Shown here one piece after another: positions 815 through 18,402 of a stretch of DNA of 64,000 bases. The notes under the pieces were generated by a model that saw only the letters and a list, made by a program, of their open reading frames with translations, did no database searches and was not told where the DNA came from. The DNA comes from Methanobacterium sp. (GTDB lineage Archaea > Methanobacteriota > Methanobacteria > Methanobacteriales > Methanobacteriaceae): positions 6,384 through 70,383 of the forward strand of contig JADFDH010000006.1 of NCBI GenBank assembly GCA_018263005.1, read 5' to 3'. The stretch's first letter is position 1. The number at the start of each line of letters is the position of its first letter. The position numbers were made by a program, and so were the translations under genes.

Positions 815-1027
815 CAAAACAATAATCAAACCTACTGAAAACATCCTACCTAACAGTGGCAAACATTAGAGAAACTTCATACTAGCCAACTGAAGAGCAC
901 CCAACTGGGCACTAACCAGCTAGGCAAAAAATACCTTAGCCAAACTAGTCCGACATGTACAGTTAAGTCATGAACATCTACAGAAACATCATACCAGCAA
1001 GACTATCCTACTACGTCAATATCTAAA
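815..1027 (+). pseudogene. decayed 3' end of a fourth adhesin-like paralog (pseudomurein-binding-repeat module)
   Basis: By-eye alignment of 841-1027 to 3809-3994 (and the same region of the other two paralogs) gives roughly 75-80% identity. It ends in the same ATCTAAAAAA stop context and is followed by the same T-rich block. The frame is broken, for example by TAG at 883-885. Confidence 0.75.
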
Positions 1028-1058
1028 AAACCAGGCTAAAAAGAAGGAATTATTAAAA

Positions 1059-1084
1059 TTTTTCCCTTATTTTTTTTATTTTTT
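1059..1084 (+). terminator. oligo-T archaeal terminator block retained behind the decayed paralog
   Basis: TTTTTCCCTTATTTTTTTTATTTTTT. The same architecture follows each intact paralog. Confidence 0.4.
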
Positions 1085-1163
1085 AAATTGTAAACAGATT
1101 TTTATCACTTAATTGGATTTTAAGAAATATCCATCGGTATTCAATTACCCATATAATATCATC

Positions 1164-1324
1164 AAATTTAAGTAGTTGCTATACTAAAATAATATTTACC
1201 TAAAACTTTTTTAGGACTTAATGGGGTTGAACAACATTGAACAAAACATTACTCAACGGATACTTTTTTTATGGAAATAGTCTTTCAATTTATAACAATA
1301 ACTCGCTAGAACAACCCCTAAAAG
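1164..1324 (+). promoter_or_regulatory. conserved upstream module of adhesin-like gene 1 (TATA-like boxes, inverted-repeat arms, internal T7 tract)
   Basis: AAATTTAAGTAG at 1164-1175. Left arm CTTTTTTAGGACTTAATGGGGTTG at 1206-1229. T7 tract at 1264-1270. CAATTTATA at 1286-1294. Right arm CAACCCCTAAAAG at 1312-1324, complementary to the left arm. The same ordered blocks precede genes 2 and 3. Confidence 0.5.
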
Positions 1325-1360
1325 AAGAATTATATTAAAAAATTAAAAGGAGGAAAAAAT

Positions 1361-3994
1361 TTGAACAAGAAACTTATCGCAATAGCCTTTACCTTAGTAA
1401 TGGCAATAATGCTCAGCGGTGCTGTTTCAGCAACAGAAGATTCTTCTTCTGAGGAACTTCTAACCACCACCTCAACGAATACTGTATTACCTGATCCGTT
1501 TGTTGTGGAAACCGGTATCAGCTACACAACCATACAGGCAGCTATCGACAGTGTTTTCACCCAGGATGGTATGACCATCCAGGTAGAGCCAGGAGTCTAC
1601 AATGAAGACGTTCTGGTATGGAAAGACCTGACCATATTGTCCAATACTCAATTTGGAGCGTCGGTTAACTCTTTCTATATAACCAGCACAGGCAGTGGTT
1701 CCACCATTGACGGATTTTACATCAACGGCGGAACTGGAGAAGCCATAACCCTAATGGAAGCAACCGATTGTACCATCAACAATAACTGGATCAGCGGAGC
1801 ATACAGCGCAGGTGTGGCCCTAGTAGACTCAAATGGTAACGACATCACTAATAACAGATTAGATAATACCCTATCAGCCTTATACTACGGAATCTACCTA
1901 GACAACAGTGACAACAACTGGATCTATCAAAATAGTATAGGAAATTCCCGATTTGATGCTATGTGGCTATACCAATCCGATCTGAACGATTTAGATAGTA
2001 ATTATATCTTCTCCAGCGGTGGAAACGGAATATATCTGGAAGAAAGCGATGATAATTACGTCGAACAAAACCAGATATTATGGAACAGCTTCGACGCTAT
2101 AGTGGTTGACGGATCATGGAACACTTACCTCTACCTTAACCAGATCTGGGAAAACGGTGAAGATGGAATTACTGTTTGGGATTCTGATGATACACTCATA
2201 GAAGAAAACACAATCTTCAGTAACGGTGATGATGGTGTAGATGTTTTCTCATCAGATGATGTAACCCTCATCATCAATCAAATCTACTCGAACTCCTGGT
2301 TTGGAGTGTATGTGGAGAATTCCCTGGGCACAGCTATAGAAAGTAACAGCATATATGGAAACATCTTCGACGGAGTTAATATATTCCAATGCAGTGAATT
2401 CGAAATAGGCCCATATAATCTCATCTTCTCAAATGGAGACAACGGAATATACGTGAATGACTCCCTTATGTTCGCCATAGACTTAAATGACATCTACCTG
2501 AACACAGGTAACGGTGTAGAAATCGATAATTCCGCAGAATTCGATGTACTCTACAATGACATCTACCAGAACGGCGGAGATGGAGTTGACATCGACGACT
2601 CCGCACTATTCGAAATCAACGACAACTGGATACATAACAATGTTGATGATGGAATAGACTTGGATACCTGTTCTGAAGCACTGATAGATCCTAACCTGAT
2701 CTATGATAACACCGAATCTGGAATAGAGATGAACGACTGCGAATATATTGACATCTACGATAACGAAATCTACAGCAACGGCCAGTGCGGAATAGAAATG
2801 GACAACAGTACAGAAATCAACATAGAGGGCAACCTGATCTACGACAACGAAGACCATGGTGTATTGGTCACCAACAGTTCCTTTGTGAATATCGAAGATA
2901 ACTGGATTGATAACAACGGATGGACCTATATCGGTGACGGTGTACATATTGAGACTTCTTCTTACATAGACGTGCAAAATAACACCATCAGCAACAACGA
3001 TGATGATGGTGTGAGCATAAACTCAAATATGATATCCGTATTCCAAAACGACATCTTCGGAAACTCTTGGGGCGTATGGCTCTGGGGCGATGCCGATGAT
3101 GTATTGGTTAACTTCAACCGCATCGTAGATAACACAACCTATGACCTGGGATACACCGCTACTGGTGATGTGGACGCTACCTTGAACTGGTATGGATACA
3201 ACGACGCTATCAGTGTAGCCGCTAGGATAGATGACACCGGAACTGGTACTTTAACCTGGGACCCCTGGATTGTATTATCCATCAGCGCTGCTCCTGGAAC
3301 TGTAAGTATTGGTGGAACCTCTACCATAACCGCAGATCTATTACACGACAGCGACGGATTCTACCACAACCCATTTGTGGGACTAGTACCATATACTGGA
3401 TCTGCTAATTTCGTAGCCACTACCTTCGGAACCATAACCAACGCCACTAACTTCAGTAACGGTGTAGCCACCGCTACATTGACCAACCTGAATGTTGCTG
3501 GTAATGCTGTGGTTGATTCAACCGTAGACCATCAGACCGTATCCACAACCGTAGTAGTGGTACCTGGAGCTACCATTCCAGAGATAATTGCAGCTGCAGG
3601 ACAGGTTAAAGCATTCTACGAAGCTAACGGCTTCCTACCAGCCAACATACTGGTCGGAGCGCAGAACCTGACCATGCCCCAGTTCCTGTACTTACTAGTG
3701 ACTGCCACTCAGAACGTGAACGTAGGCAACCTTAACCCCATAACAGTCATACCAGTTAACCCAGCACCCGCACCCGGCGGAAGCTACACCCACGGAAACC
3801 TCTTAAAAGCATCCTACCTAACCGTAGCCGGTAACATCAGAAACTTCATCTTAGCCAACGGACGAGCACCCAACTACGCACAAACCAGCCTCGGTAAAGT
3901 ACCATTCGCTAAACTAGTGTACATGTACAGCAAAGTGATGAACTTCTACGGAAACATCATACCCAACAGACTACCCAACTACGTATACATCTAA
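1361..3994 (+). CDS. adhesin-like surface protein: signal peptide, right-handed beta-helix (PbH1/NosD-like) repeats, Ig-like domain, C-terminal pseudomurein-binding repeats
   Basis: TTG start 7 nt after AAGGAGG. Signal peptide MNKKLIAIAFTLVMAIMLSGAVSA. More than 20 tandem units of about 22 aa with N-x-I..N/G-x-DGI periodicity. LNWYGYN cap motif. Ig-like segment LSISAAPGTVSIGGTSTITADL. C-terminal ...NGFLPANI... and ...NGRAPNYAQT... repeats of the Methanobacteriales cell-wall-binding type. Confidence 0.85.
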   Translation: MNKKLIAIAFTLVMAIMLSGAVSATEDSSSEELLTTTSTNTVLPDPFVVETGISYTTIQAAIDSVFTQDGMTIQVEPGVYNEDVLVWKDLTILSNTQFGASVNSFYITSTGSGSTIDGFYINGGTGEAITLMEATDCTINNNWISGAYSAGVALVDSNGNDITNNRLDNTLSALYYGIYLDNSDNNWIYQNSIGNSRFDAMWLYQSDLNDLDSNYIFSSGGNGIYLEESDDNYVEQNQILWNSFDAIVVDGSWNTYLYLNQIWENGEDGITVWDSDDTLIEENTIFSNGDDGVDVFSSDDVTLIINQIYSNSWFGVYVENSLGTAIESNSIYGNIFDGVNIFQCSEFEIGPYNLIFSNGDNGIYVNDSLMFAIDLNDIYLNTGNGVEIDNSAEFDVLYNDIYQNGGDGVDIDDSALFEINDNWIHNNVDDGIDLDTCSEALIDPNLIYDNTESGIEMNDCEYIDIYDNEIYSNGQCGIEMDNSTEINIEGNLIYDNEDHGVLVTNSSFVNIEDNWIDNNGWTYIGDGVHIETSSYIDVQNNTISNNDDDGVSINSNMISVFQNDIFGNSWGVWLWGDADDVLVNFNRIVDNTTYDLGYTATGDVDATLNWYGYNDAISVAARIDDTGTGTLTWDPWIVLSISAAPGTVSIGGTSTITADLLHDSDGFYHNPFVGLVPYTGSANFVATTFGTITNATNFSNGVATATLTNLNVAGNAVVDSTVDHQTVSTTVVVVPGATIPEIIAAAGQVKAFYEANGFLPANILVGAQNLTMPQFLYLLVTATQNVNVGNLNPITVIPVNPAPAPGGSYTHGNLLKASYLTVAGNIRNFILANGRAPNYAQTSLGKVPFAKLVYMYSKVMNFYGNIIPNRLPNYVYI

Positions 3995-4037
3995 AAAAAG
4001 GCTTAAAAAAGGTGGAATAATCCCAATTCCCCATCCC

Positions 4038-4057
4038 TTTTTATTTTTATTTTTTTA
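4038..4057 (+). terminator. oligo-T terminator after adhesin-like gene 1
   Basis: CCCTTTTTATTTTTATTTTTTT lies about 40 nt after the stop codon. Archaeal termination at T tracts is established. Confidence 0.45.
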
Positions 4058-4150
4058 ATTAGTTACCTATTGAATAAATTCCATTAATTTTCATTCTATA
4101 AGATGTTGTGAAATTCTATTTCTGTATATGTTTTGAAATTTTATTTCGGC

Positions 4151-4327
4151 AAATATAAGTAATTGTGATATTATAATACTTTTGCCTAATTTTTATTAGG
4201 AATAATGGGGTGGAAACAATGACCAAAAAACATCACTATTACAGTTGCTACTTTTTTTATGAATTGGACTTTTCTATCAATTTTTTCACAATACTTTTCC
4301 GAGTTTAAACAACACCCCCACCCTAAG
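4151..4327 (+). promoter_or_regulatory. conserved upstream module of adhesin-like gene 2
   Basis: AAATATAAGTAA at 4151-4162. Left arm TTATTAGGAATAATGGGGTGG at 4193-4213. ACAGTTGCTACTTTTTTTATGAA at 4241-4263. CAATTTTTT at 4278-4286. Right arm CCACCCTAAG at 4318-4327. Confidence 0.5.
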
Positions 4328-4366
4328 AATATTTATTAGTAAAAAAACTAAAAAGGAGGAAATAAA

Positions 4367-7108
4367 TTGAACAAGAAGCTTATAGCATTAGCTTTTGCTA
4401 TGGTAATGGCAGTTTTGCTCTCGGGTTCTACTTTTGCAGCTGATGACATTTCAGTCTCTGACGAGTTACAGACCACATCGTCTAACTCTGCAGTGCCTGA
4501 CCCATTTGTTGTGGAAACCGGTATCAGTTATACCACTATCCAGGCAGCTATTGACAGCGTGTTCACCGAGGATGGGATGACTATCCTGGTTGAGTCTGGT
4601 ACCTATAACGAAGATGTTTTCGTGTGGAAAGAGTTGACCATCACCGGTCAAAGTGCAGTGACCACTTTTGTGGACTCATTCTATGTAGTCAGTGATAACT
4701 GTGATATATCCGGATTCACATTGAACAATGGAAACGGAGAAGCTATAACCCTGATGGACACCGCCGGATGTTATATACATGATAATATCATCACCGGTCC
4801 ATACAGTGCTGGTGTTGCGGTGGTAGGAAGTGATACAGATATCTCATATGAAAATGAAGTATCAAATAATATCATAACCGGATGTTATTATGGTGTCTAC
4901 CTGGAAAATACTGCAGATAATCTTATATATTCCAATGACATAATAGGAAGCTTATGGAGTGGTATATGGGTTAATCAGAGTATGGGTAACGTCATAGATG
5001 AAAACCTATTAACATTATCATTATACGATGGAGTATGGGTACTGGATTCAGCGGACACTGTGATCTCAGAAAACACCATCATCGCCAACGGAGAAGCCGG
5101 AGTATGGGTAGAGAATTCCCTTGGAACTATCATCAGTAGGAATACCATAAGCGCCAGCATAGAGGCTGGAGTATATGTTGAGAATTCACTGGGAACCCTC
5201 ATCAATGAGAACACCATCAGCGCGAACTTATTAGACGGAATTTCAATTATAAGTTCTGACGAGACAGCCATTGAAGATAACACCATCACCGCCAACCTAT
5301 TAGAAGGTATACACGTCCAAAATTCCGATCTGGTGCACATAATGGGTAACGATATCCAAACAAGCCTATTAGGCGGAATCAGAATGGAAGACAGTGACTT
5401 CGCCACAATTGCCGGTAACCTGATTCATGCCAACCTCATCGACGGTATAATGGTCTTTAACTGCGCTGATTTCGACATAACCAACAACGACATCTACCTG
5501 AACGGTGCTGACGGAATTCTGGTAGTTAATTCAGCTGAATTTAATATAACTGGCAATGATATCTATCTGAACATTGAAGATGGAGTAACCGTTGTTAACT
5601 GTGAACTCTTCAGCATAACTGGAAACAACATCTACATAAGTATCAACGGTGTGGAAGCATGGAATTCAGCAGACTTCACCATAGAAAATAATGATATATA
5701 CCAACACTTAGGAACCGGAGTATACATCAATGATTCAACCGGATTTGACGTCATTGAAAACAACATCCATAACAACGTATTAAGCGGTGTTGATGTGGTG
5801 AACGAATCTTCCTATGGTTTAATCGGTGAAAATGAAATTCATCATAACCTGATGTTTGGAATATATGTCCATTTCTCAGAGTATATGGTTATAACCGAGA
5901 ACTGGATATACAACAATGGTGGTGATGGAGTAGAACTCAGCACAACCTACGATGTTGAAATAGTTGATAACTTAATTGAAAACAACCTACTGGCCGGTAT
6001 TTACGTCCATAACAGCACAGCTATTTTAGCAGATTACAATTTAATACGAAACAACCTGATAGATGGTATACACTCCAGCAACAATGCCGATGTACAAATT
6101 ACAGATAATGTAATACATGGACACGTGTTAGATGGTATTGACCTCATTAACACTGACCAGGTAGTTATCTTCCAGAATGACATCTACGATAATGATTGGG
6201 GTATTTATGTTGACGCTAATTGCAGTGATGTGGCCATAAACTTCAACAGAATTGTGGACAATACCTTCTGGGGATTAGAAAAAGCCGGCAGCACACCTAT
6301 AGACGCCACCCTTAACTGGTGGGGTTACAATGACGCTGCTGATGTGGATGATCAGATTAGCGGAATAGCCATAATATACGACCCTTGGATTGTATTATCC
6401 ATCAGCGCTGCCCCAGCTAACGTCAGCATCGGTGGTACTTCTACCATAACTGCTGACCTGTTACACGACAGCGACGGATTATATCACAACCCAATAAATG
6501 GTGTGATACCATACACGGGACTGGCTAACTTCACCACTGACCTAGGAACCATTGTAGATGCTAACTTCGTAAATGGAGTGGCAACCTCAACCCTGACTGG
6601 TTTAAACACCGCCGGCACTGCTACTGTATCATCAACAGTGGACCATCAGACCGTATCCACAACCGTAGTTGTGGTACCCGGAGCAACTATCGCTCAGATA
6701 ATCACCGCAGCCGGTGTGGTTAAGGCCTTCTATGAAGCCAATGGCGTACTACCTGCCATTGTACTGGTAGGTGCGCAGAACCTGACCATGCCCCAGTTCC
6801 TGTATCTCTTAGTCACCGCAACTCAGAACGTGAACGTAGGCAACCTTAACCCCATAACAGTCATACCAGTTAACCCAGCACCCGCACCCGGCGGAAGCTA
6901 CACCCACGGAAACCTCTTAAAAGCATCCTACCTAACCGTAGCCGGTAACATCAGAAACTTCATCTTAGCCAACGGACGAGCACCTAACTACGCACAAACC
7001 AGCCTCGGTAAAATACCATTCAGCAAACTAGTGTACATGTACAGCAAAGTGATGAACTTCTACGGAAACATCATACCCAACAGACTACCCAACTACGTAT
7101 ACATCTAA
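4367..7108 (+). CDS. adhesin-like surface protein paralog 2 (beta-helix repeats, Ig-like domain, pseudomurein-binding repeats)
   Basis: TTG start after AAGGAGG. Signal peptide MNKKLIALAFAMVMAVLLSGSTFA. Divergent beta-helix core. The last ~155 aa are near-identical to paralog 3 and the last ~130 aa to paralog 1. Confidence 0.85.
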   Translation: MNKKLIALAFAMVMAVLLSGSTFAADDISVSDELQTTSSNSAVPDPFVVETGISYTTIQAAIDSVFTEDGMTILVESGTYNEDVFVWKELTITGQSAVTTFVDSFYVVSDNCDISGFTLNNGNGEAITLMDTAGCYIHDNIITGPYSAGVAVVGSDTDISYENEVSNNIITGCYYGVYLENTADNLIYSNDIIGSLWSGIWVNQSMGNVIDENLLTLSLYDGVWVLDSADTVISENTIIANGEAGVWVENSLGTIISRNTISASIEAGVYVENSLGTLINENTISANLLDGISIISSDETAIEDNTITANLLEGIHVQNSDLVHIMGNDIQTSLLGGIRMEDSDFATIAGNLIHANLIDGIMVFNCADFDITNNDIYLNGADGILVVNSAEFNITGNDIYLNIEDGVTVVNCELFSITGNNIYISINGVEAWNSADFTIENNDIYQHLGTGVYINDSTGFDVIENNIHNNVLSGVDVVNESSYGLIGENEIHHNLMFGIYVHFSEYMVITENWIYNNGGDGVELSTTYDVEIVDNLIENNLLAGIYVHNSTAILADYNLIRNNLIDGIHSSNNADVQITDNVIHGHVLDGIDLINTDQVVIFQNDIYDNDWGIYVDANCSDVAINFNRIVDNTFWGLEKAGSTPIDATLNWWGYNDAADVDDQISGIAIIYDPWIVLSISAAPANVSIGGTSTITADLLHDSDGLYHNPINGVIPYTGLANFTTDLGTIVDANFVNGVATSTLTGLNTAGTATVSSTVDHQTVSTTVVVVPGATIAQIITAAGVVKAFYEANGVLPAIVLVGAQNLTMPQFLYLLVTATQNVNVGNLNPITVIPVNPAPAPGGSYTHGNLLKASYLTVAGNIRNFILANGRAPNYAQTSLGKIPFSKLVYMYSKVMNFYGNIIPNRLPNYVYI

Positions 7109-7140
7109 AAAAAAACCAAGTTTAAAGGTGAAAAAACCAA

Positions 7141-7169
7141 TTTTTCCCCTTTTTTTTATTTTATTTTTT
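7141..7169 (+). terminator. oligo-T terminator after adhesin-like gene 2
   Basis: TTTTTCCCCTTTTTTTTATTTTATTTTTT. Confidence 0.45.
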
Positions 7170-7260
7170 AAAAGAACATCAGATTCTTAGCTGGGTTCTA
7201 ATTTTTTACTCATTTACAACCCCTCATTTAATTGGGCATTTTTACCATTTTAATTTCAGC

Positions 7261-7434
7261 AAATTTAAGTAGTTCTGAAACTAAAAAAGTATATGCTTAT
7301 AAATTTTTTAGGACTTAATGGGGTGAATAATCATTTGTTCAAAACATGACTATACAGTTGCTACTTTTTTTTATGAACTGCACTATCTCCATCAATTTAT
7401 CTTAATGTTCAAAAAATATACCCCCCCTAAAAAG
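7261..7434 (+). promoter_or_regulatory. conserved upstream module of adhesin-like gene 3
   Basis: AAATTTAAGTAG at 7261-7272. Left arm TTTTTTAGGACTTAATGGGGTG at 7304-7325. ACAGTTGCTAC-T8-ATGAA at 7354-7376. CAATTTATC at 7393-7401. Right arm TACCCCCCCTAAAAAG at 7419-7434. Confidence 0.5.
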
Positions 7435-7471
7435 ATTTAAAATAAAAAAAAATTGAAAAGGAGGAAAAAAA

Positions 7472-10255
7472 TTGAACAAAAAGCTTATAGCATTAGCTTT
7501 TGCCCTGGTAATGGCAGTTATGCTCAGCGGGGCTGTTGCAGCTGCTGATGAGGATACGGTTGCTGATGACACCTCTTCTGGTGATCTTTTAACCACCACC
7601 TCATCAAACACAGCCTTGCCTGATCCCTATGTTGTGGAAACTGGTATCAGTTACACCACCATACAGGCAGCTATCGACAGCGTGTTCACCCAGGATGGTA
7701 TGACCATCCAAGTAGAGGATGGCACCTACAATGAAGACGTTCTGGTGTGGAAGTCCCTGACTATCGTAGCCGATAATCTATATGGAGCGACGGTAAATTC
7801 GTTCTATATCACCAGCACAGGCAGCGGTTCCACCATTGAAGGATTCTATATTAATGGTGGTACTGGCGAAGCTGTAACCCTCATGGACGCTACCGATTGT
7901 ACCATCAAAAACAACTGGATCACCGGCGGATACAGTGCCGGTGTAGCCCTGGTAAACAGTGACAACAACGACATAACCTATAACGTTATTGATGATTGGG
8001 CATCAGCCAACTACTACGGCATCTACCTAGACAACAGTGACAACAACTGGATATATCAAAACAGTGTAGGAAATTCCACATATGACGGTATCTGGCTATA
8101 CCAATCCGACCTGAACTATATAGACTCCAACAATATCTACTGGAACAGTTTTAACGGAGTTTATCTGGACGAGAGCGATGAAAATAACCTAGAAAACAAC
8201 TACATATGCTGGAACAGTTTTAACGGAGTATATGTAGATGATAGCGATGACAACAATATAGACTATAACTATATCAATGAAAACGGTTTAAACGGTATCT
8301 ATGTCTATAATTCAGTATCCACTGACATCTACAATAACCAAATATATGACAACGGTGCCCAGGGAATCGAAGTACAATACGGCAGTGATTTCCTTATCGG
8401 CGGCTTACTTGGAACTAATGTAATCTACGGCAATGGAGATTATGGTATATACGTTCATGATTCCAGTGATTTCGAAGTATCATATAATACCGTCTATGAC
8501 AACGCATGGGACGGTATAGGAATCTATAACAGTTCAGAATTCGTCGTAAACGTTAATGCGGCCTTTGACAATGTGAATAATGGTATAAACATAGTAGGGT
8601 CATCAGATGTAGATGTAACCGGTAACTACGCATACAGTAACGATGCTGATGGAATACAACTCTACGTTGTTTCCGATGCTTTTGTATACGGTAACAACGC
8701 CGATATCAATGTGTTCGACGGTATTCACATTTACTACTCAGATAATATCCTCGTTGAATGTAACGATGTTAATCTTAACGGCGAGGATGGTATAGATGTG
8801 GTAGACTCTAATTACTTTGACATCCAATACAATTTAATCTATCAAAACGTAGATGATGGAATAGATATCGGAAATTGCGATAATTTCAATGTATTTGACA
8901 ATGACATCTACCAGAACGGAGATGATGGTGCAGATATAAACAACTCTACCTTGTTTGAAGTAAACGACAACTGGATCTATGAAAACGTTGATGATGGTAT
9001 AGACCTAGACACCTGTACCAACGGTCTGATAGACCCCAACTTGATCTATGATAACACTGAATCAGGAATAGAGATGAACGACTGCGAAGCCATAGATATC
9101 GTAAATAATGAAATCTATGGTAACGGTGATTATGGAGTTGGAATCTTTGATTCCAGTGAAATCTCTGTAGATGGTAACATCCTAGATGATAACGAGGATG
9201 GTGTGCATATTGAGGGTAGTTCCTTAATCATTGTGCAAAACAACACTATTAGCAATAATTCTGATGATGGTGTGAGCATAAACTCAAATCTAGTAACCGT
9301 ATTCCAAAACGATATATTCGGAAACGTTTGGGGCGTATGGCTCTGGGGCGATGCCGATGATGTAGATGTGAACTTCAACCGCATTGTGGACAACACTAAC
9401 GTAGATCTGGGATATATTGCAACTGGTGATGTGGACGCTACCTTGAACTGGTGGGGATACAACAACCCAGCTGATGTGGCCACCAGAATAAGCGACACCG
9501 GAACCGGTACTTTAACCTATGATCCTTGGATAGTCTTATCCATAACTGCTAGCCCAGCTAGTGTGGGTATCGGCGGAACCAGTACTATTACTGCTGATCT
9601 GTTATACGACAGCGATGGTATGTATCACAACCCCGTAAATGGTGTTATACCCTATAAGGGATCTGCTAATTTCACAGCCACCACCTTCGGAACCATAACC
9701 AACGCCACTAACTTCAGTAACGGTGTGGCCACCGCTACTCTAACTAACCTGAATGATGCTGGTAACGCTGTGGTTGATTCAACAGTGGACCATCAGACCG
9801 TATCCACAACCGTAGTAGTGGTACCCGGAGCAACTATCGCTCAGATAATCACCGCAGCCGGTGTGGTTAAGGCCTTCTATGAAGCCAATGGCGTACTACC
9901 TGCCACTGTACTGGTAGGTGCGCAGAACCTGACCATGCCCCAGTTCCTGTATCTCTTAGTCACCGCAACTCAGAACGTAAACGTAGGCAACCTTAACCCC
10001 ATAACTGTAATCGCAGTTAACCCAGCACCCGCACCCGGCGGAAGCTACACCCACGGAAACCTCTTAAAAGCATCCTACCTAACCGTAGCCGGTAACATCA
10101 GAAACTTCATACTAACCAACGGACGAGCACCCAACTACGCACAAACCAGCCTCGGTAAAATACCATTCAGCAAACTAGTCTACATGTACAGCAAAGTCAT
10201 GAACTTCTACGGAAACATCATACCCAACAGACTACCCAACTACGTATACATCTAA
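7472..10255 (+). CDS. adhesin-like surface protein paralog 3 (beta-helix repeats, Ig-like domain, pseudomurein-binding repeats)
   Basis: TTG start after AAGGAGG. Signal peptide MNKKLIALAFALVMAVMLSGAVAA. The N-terminal ~200 aa are closest to paralog 1 and the C-terminal ~155 aa closest to paralog 2. Confidence 0.85.
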   Translation: MNKKLIALAFALVMAVMLSGAVAAADEDTVADDTSSGDLLTTTSSNTALPDPYVVETGISYTTIQAAIDSVFTQDGMTIQVEDGTYNEDVLVWKSLTIVADNLYGATVNSFYITSTGSGSTIEGFYINGGTGEAVTLMDATDCTIKNNWITGGYSAGVALVNSDNNDITYNVIDDWASANYYGIYLDNSDNNWIYQNSVGNSTYDGIWLYQSDLNYIDSNNIYWNSFNGVYLDESDENNLENNYICWNSFNGVYVDDSDDNNIDYNYINENGLNGIYVYNSVSTDIYNNQIYDNGAQGIEVQYGSDFLIGGLLGTNVIYGNGDYGIYVHDSSDFEVSYNTVYDNAWDGIGIYNSSEFVVNVNAAFDNVNNGINIVGSSDVDVTGNYAYSNDADGIQLYVVSDAFVYGNNADINVFDGIHIYYSDNILVECNDVNLNGEDGIDVVDSNYFDIQYNLIYQNVDDGIDIGNCDNFNVFDNDIYQNGDDGADINNSTLFEVNDNWIYENVDDGIDLDTCTNGLIDPNLIYDNTESGIEMNDCEAIDIVNNEIYGNGDYGVGIFDSSEISVDGNILDDNEDGVHIEGSSLIIVQNNTISNNSDDGVSINSNLVTVFQNDIFGNVWGVWLWGDADDVDVNFNRIVDNTNVDLGYIATGDVDATLNWWGYNNPADVATRISDTGTGTLTYDPWIVLSITASPASVGIGGTSTITADLLYDSDGMYHNPVNGVIPYKGSANFTATTFGTITNATNFSNGVATATLTNLNDAGNAVVDSTVDHQTVSTTVVVVPGATIAQIITAAGVVKAFYEANGVLPATVLVGAQNLTMPQFLYLLVTATQNVNVGNLNPITVIAVNPAPAPGGSYTHGNLLKASYLTVAGNIRNFILTNGRAPNYAQTSLGKIPFSKLVYMYSKVMNFYGNIIPNRLPNYVYI

Positions 10256-10285
10256 AACTAAATTAAAAATGGAATAAAACAAATA

Positions 10286-10312
10286 TTTCCCCTTTTTATT
10301 TTTTTATTTTTT
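10286..10312 (+). terminator. oligo-T terminator after adhesin-like gene 3
   Basis: TTTCCCCTTTTTATTTTTTTATTTTTT. Confidence 0.45.
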
Positions 10313-10451
10313 AAGAAATGATCTAAATTTTCATTCTATATCTGCTTTTAAGATTTATCACAATATCAACGGTTGATTTTCATTTTCGATAATATATAAA
10401 TAGTAATAAAGTGAGAATTATATCTATATAAATATTTTAGTAGTTAATAGG

Positions 10452-10868
10452 GTGATAATGTTGAGAATTCCGAAAAATGTCCAAATTGGTTTAATAATTG
10501 CAGTTCTTTGTTGTATTGTAGCTGTTTCTGGATGTACTTCCAACAATACTACGACCAAGAACAATACGAGTTCTAATAATTCAGATTCAAATCCACAAGC
10601 TTCAAGTGAGATTCTTATTGTGGTTGATTATGCTGGTAGTTGGGCGGTTGATGTAAGTGGTGCTTTCGGATATCGTTCATTTTCAGGAACAGGAAGTCAA
10701 ACCAATAACATAGGAACTGTGAGTGGAACTGTAACTGCTGCCGCTCGCAAAACTGACAACGGTAATGGTCTTTTAACCGTTTCCATAACTAAAGATGGGA
10801 AAACACTAGCCTCACAGAGCACATCATACCCCTATGGAGGGGCAACGGCAGTGGCCACAGGGATCTAA
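10452..10868 (+). CDS. small secreted or lipoprotein-like protein, unknown function
   Basis: Hydrophobic N-terminus ending in VSGC. This is followed by an N/S/T-rich linker and a Gly/Ser/Thr-rich beta-type domain. The start is ambiguous (GTG 10452, ATG 10458). Confidence 0.45.
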   Translation: MIMLRIPKNVQIGLIIAVLCCIVAVSGCTSNNTTTKNNTSSNNSDSNPQASSEILIVVDYAGSWAVDVSGAFGYRSFSGTGSQTNNIGTVSGTVTAAARKTDNGNGLLTVSITKDGKTLASQSTSYPYGGATAVATGI

Positions 10869-16046: not shown

Positions 16047-17066
16047 TTAATTACTGCGCTGTAACATGTAATCTGCCAGTAATAATAGAGCCTCTTTTGT
16101 CTTTGAATCATCCACCACATCCAATAATTTTTTTGCCCTTTCCACATTTTCCAGGGCTATATCCCTGGTGTAATTTATGGACCCATACTTATTGAAGATG
16201 TTAATGGCCTTCTCCACTATTTCTTCATCACTATAATCAGTATTATCAGAACTATTAAGCAGGGAAATGAGTGTCTCTTTATCCTCTGCTGATGCACGGG
16301 ATAATGTGTGAACCACCATAAGTGTCATTTTACCCTCTACAATATCACTACCCACTGGCTTGCCCAGTTCTTCTGCATCGCTTACCACATCCAGATAATC
16401 ATCCTGTATCTGGAATGCCATGCCTATCAGTTTTCCATATTCTGCCAGTGCCTCTATCTGTTCTTCACTGCCACCGCCGAGTATAGCCCCTGATTTGGTC
16501 GCTGCGGCAATTAAGGCTGCGGTTTTTTTATAGATCATGTTCAGATATTCACTCTCTGATACATCCATTTTTCCTTCAAATCCCATGTCACAGGCCTGTC
16601 CTTCACAGATCTTAATACAGGCATCCACCACTGTGTTCAATGCTTTGATCACCTGCTGGGAGGGTATGTCTTCTTCATGGGTCTGGGCTACCAGTTCAAA
16701 TGCCAGGGAAAAAAGAGTATCACCGGCGAGTATGGCCATTGGTTCTCCCCATATGGTGTGTACTGCAGGTAATCCTCTTCTCATTTCATCCTCATCCATT
16801 ATATCATCATGGATCAGGCTGAAAGTATGGATCAGTTCCACAGCTGCCGCTGTTTTATAGGCGCCTTCCGTCCTGCCGCCCACTGCTTCAGCACTTAAAA
16901 GTACCAATGAAGGTCTTATCTTCTTTCCACCAGCTTTTATAAGATGTTTAGATGCATCATAAAGATTTTTAGGATCAACAGTTCCTAATGATTTATTTAT
17001 TTCCTCATCAACACCTGCTGAATATTTTTTCAGTATATCTAAAACTTCCAAATCATATCCCTCCAT
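16047..17066 (-). CDS. idsA: geranylgeranyl diphosphate (short-chain isoprenyl diphosphate) synthase
   Basis: First Asp-rich motif [12 protein letters not shown] and second motif QDDYLD. The start is placed at MEGYDLEVL (ATG 17066), which overlaps the RNase J 3' end by 14 nt. The longer ORF-track start would run deep into RNase J. Confidence 0.85.
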
Positions 17067-18402
17067 TAAAAACCTGTGCCTGTCCATTACGCAGTAAATG
17101 AATATTATTTCCCATCTTATAACCTTCTTCCTCTGCCAGTTCAGTGTAAGCTGCCAGCATCTCCAGATCACCATGGGCGGGGATTATATGCTCCGGGTTC
17201 AGCATCCGGATGAAGTCCCGGTGATCTTCTCTTCCAGCATGTCCAGAAACGTGCAAATTAGGATATATTCTAGCCCCGCTGGATTTAAGCCTTCTCTCCA
17301 TGACATTTCTGTTGGCTATGTTCATGGGACTGGGAATTATAGGTGCCGATATTAGAACATTATCCCCTGGCCTTACATGGAAATTGGTTTTAGCATTGGC
17401 AATACGAGGCAGTAGAGCATCAACTTCACCCTGATGTCCGGTGGTCACCAGGAGAAAGTCTTCTCTTTTTTCCTCAGCCCGGGCCAGAGCCCGGTTAACC
17501 GCCTTAGGACTTCCGTAGATACTGGCTGTTTCTGGGAGGTTTAGAATCTTCAGTTTCTCAGCAATACTGCCAAAACGCTCCATTGATCGGCCTAAGAGTA
17601 GGATCTGTCTGTCGCTTTGATCAGCAATGTTACAAATAGCCTGAATACGTTCTATATGAGATGAGAATGTGGTGATTAGCATTCCCTCCTTTTCGGTTAA
17701 AGCCTGCTCCATCACATCCTGTAAAACCAGACGGGCAACCTTTTCCGAGTGTGTTTTGACCTCCTGTTCTTCGGTCATCCTGGTGGTTTCCACTATTAAG
17801 GCCAGTACACCATTTCTGCCCAGCTCCCTCAGTCTTTGATAATCTGGTGGGGAGGATAACATCTGATGGTTATCAAATTTGAAATCATTAGCATATACTA
17901 TGATACCCTCTGATGTATGTAATGCTGCGTTAACAGTCTGAGGAAGACTATGGGTGGTGTTTACAAATTCAAGGGTTACATCAGGGGATAATTGTATCTT
18001 CTCCCCGGGGTTTAATATCTGCAAGGGATTGCTTACCTTGAATTTCTTCTCGGATTTGATGGTTTTCTCTATGAGGCCCATGGTATATGGTGTGCCGATG
18101 AGTGGTGCCTCATACCGGTGGGCCAGTTTCCCTACTGCCCCTATATGATCCAGGTGACCGTGGGTGAATACAATGGCCCTTACCTTACCATCAACCTCCT
18201 TCATCAGAGTATCATCGGGTATTATCCCTCTTTCTATGAGGTCTAAACTGTGCATTCTGGCCATATCTGTATCTTCATGTATATGCACCCGATCCAGATG
18301 TATGCCCATATCGAATATTACCACGTCTTCACCGATCTTAACTGCGGACATGTTCTTACCCACTTCTTCATATCCACCTATGGCTATTACTTCAACACTC
18401 AT
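17053..18402 (-). CDS. rnj: archaeal RNase J (metallo-beta-lactamase / beta-CASP ribonuclease)
   Basis: Metallo-beta-lactamase motif [11 protein letters not shown]. 449 aa with a beta-CASP-type C-terminal half ([10 protein letters not shown]). Confidence 0.8.

Follow-up and report, generated by a model that had tools for sequence, protein, structure and literature searches.

A probable cis-acting 5' leader with Shine-Dalgarno-like and anti-Shine-Dalgarno-like arms upstream of tandem adhesin-like genes in Methanobacterium

The window analysed here, by which we mean the whole stretch of 64,000 nucleotides from Methanobacterium sp. (assembly GCA_018263005.1, contig JADFDH010000006.1), contains three tandem adhesin-like genes on the forward strand, each with the same ordered module of five short sequence blocks ahead of its start codon; this upstream module is the subject of our study. 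The genes occupy positions 1361-3994, 4367-7108 and 7472-10255, all begin with TTG, and encode paralogous proteins of 877, 913 and 927 amino acids (aa) with Beta_helix and NosD domains and with pseudomurein-binding repeat domains (PMBR). The module was recognized in a first-pass annotation of the DNA, which offered two readings of it, a transcribed leader with attenuation or riboswitch-like control and an invertible promoter; the coordinates proposed there for all five blocks upstream of the three genes were each verified in the sequence.

All blocks are read on the forward strand. Block (i), a TATA-like box with the consensus AAAT(T/A)TAAGTA, is AAATTTAAGTA in copies 1 and 3 (1164-1174 and 7261-7271) and AAATATAAGTA in copy 2 (4151-4161). 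It is similar to the tRNA promoter of the window (ATTATAAG) and, as a sequence motif, represents a credible archaeal TATA; in copy 1 it is the putative distal promoter, with a transcription start site (TSS) predicted near 1197. The predicted 5' end of the transcript carries in copy 1 a small palindrome, CCTAAAA-N3-TTTTAGG (1199-1215), which forms a hairpin in both the minimum free energy (MFE) and the centroid structures, and in copy 2 the palindrome CCTAAT-N4-ATTAGG (4185-4200), also a predicted hairpin. The 5' half of the former, CCTAAAA, recurs within the right arm of copy 1 (1317-1323), and TTTTAGG could thus pair either locally or over a long range. Block (ii), the left arm, spans 1206-1229, 4193-4213 and 7304-7325. 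Its G-rich core, denoted L, is GGGGTTG in copy 1 (1223-1229) and (T)GGGGTGG in copy 2 (4206-4213); in copy 3 the L region (7305-7325) comprises TTTTTAGG (7305-7312), which pairs with CCTAAAAA (7426-7433), and GGGGTG (7320-7325), which pairs with TACCCC (7419-7424). Block (v), the right arm, spans 1312-1324, 4318-4327 and 7419-7434, with a C-rich core, denoted R, that is CAACCCC in copy 1 (1312-1318), CCACCCTA in copy 2 (4318-4325) and TACCCCCCCTAAAAA in copy 3 (7419-7433). The arms are short, those of copy 1 consisting of two exact 7-nt half-arms, and the L:R duplex is worth -13.3 kcal/mol in copy 1 and -15.0 kcal/mol in copy 2. A coupled change of both arms between these two copies, claimed in the first-pass annotation, is real, with U-A in the one replaced by G-C in the other. 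R is followed at a distance of 30, 31 and 32 nt, in copies 1 to 3 respectively, by the GGAGG of the true Shine-Dalgarno (SD) sequence (1349-1353, 4355-4359 and 7460-7464), which together with the TTG at 1361, 4367 and 7472 makes up the initiation regions 1349-1363, 4355-4369 and 7460-7474.

The segment between the arms contains the two remaining blocks. Block (iii) is GGATAC-T7-ATGGAA in copy 1 (1258-1277, T tract 1264-1270), ACAGTTGCTAC-T7-ATGAA in copy 2 (4241-4263, T tract 4252-4258) and ACAGTTGCTAC-T8-ATGAA in copy 3 (7354-7377, T tract 7365-7372); apart from T7 and T8 it is the same in copies 2 and 3, as had been claimed. Block (iv), CAATTTAT in copies 1 and 3 (1286-1293 and 7393-7400) and CAATTTTT in copy 2 (4278-4285), is a possible proximal TATA. 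From its TTTAT to the start of R the distance is 23-24 nt in copies 1 and 3 (23 each) and in the leaders of the L001/L109 sub-lineage described below (2938-2968 in L001), and 37 nt in copy 2, owing to a 10-nt insertion (about 4292-4301) between the block and R; block (iv) may be a proximal promoter. The composite motif TAATGGGGT-N10-22-AAAACATNACT has three matches in the window and none in 100 shuffles.

The short open reading frames (ORFs) of the module had been described as not conserved between copies, and comparison of the ORFs bears this out; with the leader ORFs unconserved, a leader peptide is ruled out. In each of the three copies a homologous frame that crosses the T-run (TTT TTT TAT = FFY) stays open over 29-39 codons (1237-1338, 4219-4308 and 7327-7446), and in copy 3 it is kept by two compensating 1-nt indels (TATTACAG to TATACAG, and T7 to T8), where it has no canonical start codon. 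The peptides of this frame are poorly conserved, and there is no equivalent ORF in the L056 or L110 leaders introduced below.

The paralogous proteins are 57-58% identical to that of copy 2, and four-fold synonymous sites are 42-76% identical between the paralogs (53-67% in the adjacent N-terminal part of the coding sequence), values by which the paralogs are old. The pairwise identity of the module among the three copies is 64-71%, that of the stretch upstream of it, from terminator to TATA, 48-57%. From these figures, conservation within the window is block-wise (TATA, L arm, CTAC-Tn-ATGAA, SD) and modestly above that of silent sites. Positions 828-1089 (forward strand) are a pseudogene remnant, the decayed 3' end of one more adhesin-like copy together with its terminator. 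By blastn it matches the 3' end of each intact gene at 75-77% nucleotide identity, and its translation contains stops and frameshifts; because of this remnant, spacer 1 is also an inter-copy spacer.

To place the module in a wider context we compared n = 7 leaders (six distinct) from four lineages. These are w1, w2 and w3, the leaders of window copies 1, 2 and 3; L056, from a Logan assembly, with a homologue of 46% aa identity; L110, from Methanobacterium sp. GCA_021372715.1, where the homologue (45% aa identity) is itself part of a tandem pair; and L001 and L109, which form one sub-lineage. The sequence of a further locus, L055, begins only 94 nt upstream of its gene and is not among the usable leaders. 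It can be seen that three further Methanobacterium lineages have the arrangement of a G-arm and a C-arm upstream of homologues with 45-61% aa identity: in L056, L110, L001 and L109 the start codon follows the 3' end of L by 131-155 nt, and in all leaders R lies 20-32 nt upstream of GGAGG and is separated from L by 82-114 nt. The arm pairs (L with R) are GGGGUUG with CAACCCC in w1, (U)GGGGUGG with CCACCC(UA) in w2, GGGGUG with UACCCC in w3, GGGGGAG with CUCUCCC in L110, (A)GGGGGGG(U) with (A)UCCCCUC(U) in L056, and GGGGUUGA with UCAACCUC in L001/L109. The intervening sequence is AU-rich and otherwise unalignable across lineages, so that what the lineages share, as far as can be read from these leaders, is the arrangement and the complementarity of the arms, not the overall sequence. 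The first-pass annotation had left open that the conservation reflects recent duplication only, to be judged from the upstream regions of relatives; arm complementarity is kept in L056, L110 and L001/L109, and on this comparison the L/R arrangement predates the local duplication.

The TTG start 7 nt past GGAGG is found in all three window genes and in the L110 homologue (930), and the L056 and L001/L109 homologues have an ATG start instead. A gene for a zinc-ribbon membrane protein precedes the adhesin-like genes both in the window, where it is the first gene (83-646), and in L056 (275-691), and synteny is therefore conserved. In the L001/L109 sub-lineage an inner hairpin, ACUCCUCU(U/C)AU...AU(A/G)AGAGAGU (2864-2892 in L001, about 7435-7465 in L109), contains one compensatory change from U-A to C-G and is followed by U5-6 and U8-9 tracts; its CUCCUCU strand is a perfect mimic of the anti-SD, and in the predicted MFE structure it is this strand that captures L.

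Adhesin-like genes with another N-terminus (L002, L111-L113) have short, ordinary leaders with neither pseudo-SD nor L/R duplex, the module is absent at the look-up loci L108 and L111-L115, and nhmmer recovered no extra copies in any locus. The N-terminal family to which the window proteins belong (MNKK...PDP..ETGISYTTIQAAIDSV) is rare in the public collections searched, and its nearest relatives, among the matches listed, are all Methanobacterium metagenome-assembled genomes. A protein search with the full-length query gave two useful homologues, and one with the N-terminal query no matches; a C-terminal profile gave 97 matches, mostly fragments or members of other N-terminal families; and a scan of a genome collection that used the protein alignment as query gave, among the matches listed, the close loci L001 and L002 and 52 others that are distant beta-helix proteins. 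A metagenome scan with the pattern TACTTTTTT-N0-2-ATGRA-N60-90-AAAAGGAGG returned 51 matches, which we regard as chance since none of them adjoins a homologue.

We then asked whether L and R behave as the two strands of an RNA helix. In an unsupervised MAFFT alignment of five leaders RNAalifold finds L:R as the sole consensus helix, and the same is true of the three window copies alone, with no conserved inner structure. In an alignment fitted by register, 91.7% of the cells are paired, versus 76.1 +/- 3.9% in shuffled controls (0 of 500 reached the observed value) and 48-65% when the registers are slid; the covariation score is 0.542, versus 0.272 for the shuffled controls (again 0 of 500). 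Two positions account for changes on both sides of the helix: pair 5 is U-A in four leaders and G-C in two, and pair 6 is G-C in two, U-A in two, A-U in one and G.U in one. The non-Watson-Crick cells of the 7-bp core consist of six G.U, one A.A and no A.C, an asymmetry which suits a helix in sense-strand RNA more than an inverted repeat in DNA or an antisense transcript. In all seven leaders L:R forms part of the most stable duplex that the L and R zones can make, and L:R energies span -9.6 to -15.4 kcal/mol. Ranked by the duplex between these zones against 2,415 natural intergenic windows of the same genomes, every leader falls in the top 4-10%; combining the values of the four lineages by Fisher's method gives p ~0.004 (hand calculation). 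As judged from these alignments, L:R complementarity is maintained across lineages through compensatory changes. Two other uses of the arms were considered: a bulge-helix-bulge site for the splicing endonuclease is ruled out by the flanks of L:R, which form a symmetric 3x3 internal loop, and half-sites for a transcription factor are ruled out by the variable spacing of the arms (82-114 bp).

What the earlier reading overlooked is that L is a mimic of the SD and R a mimic of the anti-SD, and the most likely mechanism changes as a result. L has the consensus GGGGUKR and lies close to the predicted 5' end of the transcript. Its predicted binding to the anti-SD of an assumed 16S tail is -7.6 kcal/mol in copy 1, -9.4 in copy 2 and -10.6 for the GGGGTG of copy 3, the strongest site of that region; over all leaders the range is -7.6 to -10.7 kcal/mol, compared with -10.0 (the value of copy 1) to -11.4 kcal/mol for the true SD. 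In 260-nt upstream regions L is second only or equal to the true SD in 7/7 leaders, other sites being -5.9 kcal/mol or weaker, and sites as strong as L occur in only 14% of 60-nt control windows. G-runs of the L type are moreover the real SDs of neighbouring or related gene families. On the other side, R resembles the 16S anti-SD (CACCUC in L110, CAACCUC in L001, UCCCCUCU in L056), and its pairing with the true SD, -5.0 to -8.5 kcal/mol (-7.3 to -8.5 in L056, L110 and L001/L109), is weaker than its pairing with L. Ensemble prediction gives R:SD pairing for w3 alone (0.22 per R nucleotide), with values of at most 0.03 in the other six leaders. ORFs following L are absent in L056 and L110 and unconserved elsewhere.

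A truncated fourth repeat unit downstream of the array bears on the same question. Spacer 4 (10256-10457, forward strand) contains a terminator, a TATA-like stretch (about 10385-10401) and a homologue of L, TTTTAGTAGTTAATAGGGTGAT (...TAATAGGGTGAT), at 10435-10456, directly before the ATG at 10458 of a small lipoprotein-like ORF on the same strand (10458-10868, 136 aa, with a signal peptide and a lipobox-like AVSGC), for which a Pfam search gave no match. Between the stop codon and L, terminator and TATA included, spacer 4 can be aligned with spacers 1-3, and past L it diverges; it follows that the array's repeat unit has its end immediately 3' of L. The L homologue has an anti-SD binding of -9.9 kcal/mol and, on these features, appears to serve as the SD of the lipoprotein-like gene; the homologue of block (i) lies about 60 nt before the ORF. 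Since it precedes a separate gene here, block (i) is probably a working promoter, and since the L homologue adjoins the ATG at 10458, L itself is probably transcribed and accessible to ribosomes.

These results can be interpreted in terms of post-transcriptional control. We consider the module a probable new cis-acting 5' leader, and see about an even chance that it is specifically a leader in which a pseudo-SD and an anti-SD-like segment pair at the RNA level and control translation or stability, and not a site of DNA inversion. The distal TATA would drive an adhesin-like mRNA with an AU-rich leader of about 165-190 nt, in the sense strand of which L and R would pair. R would have two alternative partners, L or, more weakly, the true SD: pairing with L would leave the true SD open and conceal the decoy, and anything bound at L, such as a 30S subunit, would release R, which could then occlude the true SD. 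Alternatively, R could be freed by ribosomes initiating at the start codons, themselves unconserved, that w1-w3 have 5-9 nt past the 3' end of L. With a 30S subunit on it, L could also serve as a barrier to 5'-to-3' decay by RNase J, and the U6-U9 tract between the arms would probably give some premature termination without being part of the universal core of the element. A gene for an RNase J-type beta-CASP/metallo-beta-lactamase protein, which bears on the protection of 5' ends, is present in the window on the reverse strand (17053-18402), among mevalonate-pathway and ribosomal genes.

Several observations weigh against this interpretation. Only 7 sequences from 4 lineages were compared, and the alignment behind the pair counts was fitted by us to the structure, with registers of our choosing. 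Folding of single sequences is no better than that of shuffles (z = -0.10, +1.48 and +0.20 for the three window copies), and the individual duplex energies are not significant with respect to mononucleotide shuffles (p = 0.02-0.26). In w1, w2 and L110 the ensemble prediction gives L:R a probability of 0.65-0.82, so that the helix dominates in 3 of the 7 leaders, but the value is 0.14 in w3, 0.05 in L056 and 0.00 in L001/L109; in these latter leaders L and the SD are paired instead with other C/U-rich segments. This mixed pattern is compatible with a switch and also with weak, non-functional complementarity. A profile built from the window copies fails to find the leaders of the other lineages by sequence, so that homology of the arms between lineages is judged by their position and by short motifs. 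The 16S 3' end used for all binding energies, GAUCACCUCCU, is an assumed one, the canonical sequence of Methanobacteriales and not one taken from this genome. In w1-w3, R:SD is worth only -5.0 to -6.3 kcal/mol and has a central C.A mismatch. No conserved upstream ORF was found in the leaders compared, and Rfam gave no match at the gathering score in the region, those at E <= 10 being chance matches and none of them in the leaders. Finally, the long U-tract is missing in one lineage, L110 keeping L and R with only U4 tracts, and the CTAC-T6-8-ATGAA block is strongly conserved and yet is left unexplained by the leader model.

This last block is the natural starting point for the first alternative, that of transcription attenuation, according to which the U6-U9 tract terminates most transcripts (by intrinsic termination and aCPSF1) and read-through is set by the state of the L:R helix or by whether the U-tract is paired with the A-rich sequence that precedes the SD. 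The CTAC-T6-8-ATGAA block is the best conserved of all between the window copies and L056, and U6-U9 tracts lie between the arms in 6/7 leaders (U7 in w1 and w2, U8 in w3, U6 and U8 in L056, U5 and U9 in L001, U6 and U8 in L109). U4-U7 tracts are known to act as archaeal terminators, two tracts giving high efficiency (PMC8716108), and the tracts of the window copies, L056, L001 and L109 are bona fide signals of this kind; so strong a terminator signal would not be expected within a 5' leader if it had no use. In each window copy the A-tract that lies between R and the SD is complementary to the U-tract, although such complementarity is trivial in AT-rich DNA. Set against this, L110 has L and R with U4 only, archaeal termination is independent of hairpins and offers no obvious route by which a distant 7-bp helix could control it, and neither a conserved inner structure nor an Rfam match or a conserved leader peptide accompanies the tract. 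As a full account we therefore find attenuation rather unlikely; given the U4 tracts of L110 and the lack of a control route for a remote 7-bp helix, it is a plausible added layer and not the core. Thus of the first reading in the first-pass annotation, the transcribed leader with a long-range helix is supported in part, on the strength of compensatory changes in four lineages, of G.U as the only wobble and of a credible TATA; the terminator enclosed by this helix fares less well, in view of L110, of folding equal to that of shuffles and of the dominance of L:R in three leaders out of seven; and the riboswitch-like control suggested with it is not supported, neither Rfam nor the consensus structure indicating a ligand-binding fold.

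According to a second alternative, which we regard as unlikely on balance, the module has no dedicated function: the leader would be inherited by descent, L being a relic or an occasional SD (as in spacer 4 or for short upstream ORFs) and R a mere C-run, and the two G-rich and few C-rich islands of an AT-rich leader would pair easily. Folding z-scores near zero, duplex energies that are merely in the top 4-10%, pairing of L with other C/U-rich segments in 4/7 predicted ensembles, the absence of a cross-lineage profile match, and a module slightly above silent-site conservation within the window all agree with this possibility. It is harder to reconcile with the persistence of L, R and the R-to-SD distance at 45-61% protein identity while the intervening sequence has become unalignable, with changes on both sides of two helix positions that preserve pairing, with a core that has six G.U and no A.C, and with the fact that the arrangement is missing from other adhesin-like genes of the same genomes.

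A third alternative, to which we assign only a slim chance, divides the module into two transcription units. Block (i) would produce a small RNA of about 70 nt that carries L and ends at the U-tract, and block (iv) would be the promoter of the mRNA, with its TSS at or near R, so that the two RNAs would pair in trans and co-evolve paralog by paralog. A distal TATA followed by some 70 nt of transcribed sequence and a U7-8 terminator does make up the complete layout of a small gene, in w1, w3 and L001/L109 the TTTAT of block (iv) keeps a constant distance of 23-24 nt to R, and the L:R covariation fits pairing in trans equally to pairing in cis. However, block (iv) is a weak TATA without a flank resembling the transcription factor B recognition element, its position in copy 2 is shifted by 10-13 nt, it is unrecognisable in L056 and L110, the usual spacing would put the TSS at or just after R and thus R off the mRNA, and the long U-tract is absent in L110. 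A more general form of the idea, speculative from the sequence at hand and with a small probability in our estimate, is that each gene has its own small RNA of about 70 nt, from distal TATA to U-tract, and that the SD mimic in it pairs with the anti-SD-like C-run found where the adjacent mRNA starts, either in trans or as part of a ribosome-sensing cis leader. If true, the amount of each surface protein would be set by free 30S subunits or by the dosage of the small RNA, and the array would hold paralog-specific, co-evolving riboregulator pairs in an archaeon.

The inverton put forward in the first-pass annotation, in which L and R would be DNA inverted repeats and a site-specific recombinase would flip the 82-114 bp segment with the proximal promoter to give phase-variable adhesins, has in its favour the classical setting of phase variation, inverted repeats around a TATA-like segment upstream of a surface-protein multigene family, but is extremely improbable in light of core repeats of 6-8 bp, of G.T mismatches at the DNA level in 4/6 distinct leaders that are always neutral in the sense RNA, of an arm spacing that varies, of an inter-arm segment in the same orientation in all four leaders with the CTAC-T6-8-ATGAA motif (w1-w3, L056), and of the recombinase expected under it, which was not found among the 27 ORFs of the 64-kb window scanned with Pfam. 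Among the papers listed by our literature search, none linked invertons with archaea or Methanobrevibacter.

The pseudo-SD:anti-SD leader thus remains our preferred reading, and it can be set beside several known systems. Invertons typically carry longer repeats. Bacterial examples (fimS, and the promoters reported by PhaseFinder) share with the module the inverted repeats around a promoter-like segment upstream of surface-protein genes, and differ from it in that the arms of the window are much shorter and are imperfect in a way compatible with RNA. The closest parallel for L by itself is the STAB-SD of cry3A, reportedly the work of Agaisse and Lereclus in 1996. In Bacillus thuringiensis this SD-like sequence acts as a 5' stabiliser of the cry3A mRNA (PMC4113751). 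In both cases an SD-like sequence complementary to the 16S 3' end and unused for the main ORF lies near the 5' end (a predicted one in the window) of a leader of more than 100 nt, the product is a secreted or surface protein made in abundance, and the organism has an RNase J-type 5'-3' exonuclease; the window belongs to an archaeon, however, and its pseudo-SD has a conserved partner R near the true SD which the STAB-SD does not need. For R, the comparison is with icaR of Staphylococcus aureus, where a UCCCC anti-SD pairs over a long range with the SD, UCCCC motifs being present also in RNAIII and RsaE (PMC3868564). There, and as proposed here, a C-rich motif of the UCCCC type pairs with a distant G-rich motif of the SD type (UAGGGGG) in the same mRNA of a biofilm or surface-related gene, and the R arm of L056 contains UCCCCU. 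The anti-SD of icaR differs in that it lies in the 3' untranslated region (UTR), targets the true SD and leads to cleavage by RNase III, whereas in the window the 5' leader contains both segments, and R is predicted to pair more strongly with a decoy SD than with the true one.

Translational attenuation leaders (of the ermC and cat/cmlA type) and SD-sequestering leaders offer a further likeness, since in them too an upstream segment competes for the segment that occludes the SD, and the window copies have start codons 5-9 nt past the 3' end of L; unlike ermC, cat and cmlA, the window leaders are without a conserved leader peptide, their R:SD pairing is weak, and ribosome stalling is without support. 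Among methanogens, regulatory 5' leaders have been described for cdh and mtaCB of Methanosarcina, and long 5' UTRs for M. mazei (PMC3600222). Long 5' UTRs, SD-dependent initiation and proposed control by premature termination, processing or translation are common to these and to the module, which is distinguished by its occurrence in Methanobacteriales, by another class of gene and another sequence, and by the pseudo-SD:anti-SD helix, a feature that does not define the known leaders. With regard to novelty, the first-pass annotation knew of no description of such an element for adhesin-like genes of Methanobacteriales, and our literature searches found none.

Adhesin-like proteins mediate attachment and syntrophic or host interactions. 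To our knowledge very few cis-acting regulatory RNAs have been described in archaea, and we know of nothing on the control of the large adhesin-like protein families of Methanobacteriales. The component ideas, a decoy SD, anti-SD pairing and termination at U-tracts, are already familiar from bacteria, and such elements are scarce in archaea. If merely inherited, the module still records the growth of a tandem array and the apparent recruitment of a leader pseudo-SD as the real SD of a neighbouring gene. A decoy ribosome-binding site paired with an anti-SD-like element beside the real site would be a compact and mutationally tractable system, and a leader of this kind would show how SD-dependent initiation, RNase J decay and U-tract termination combine in archaea.

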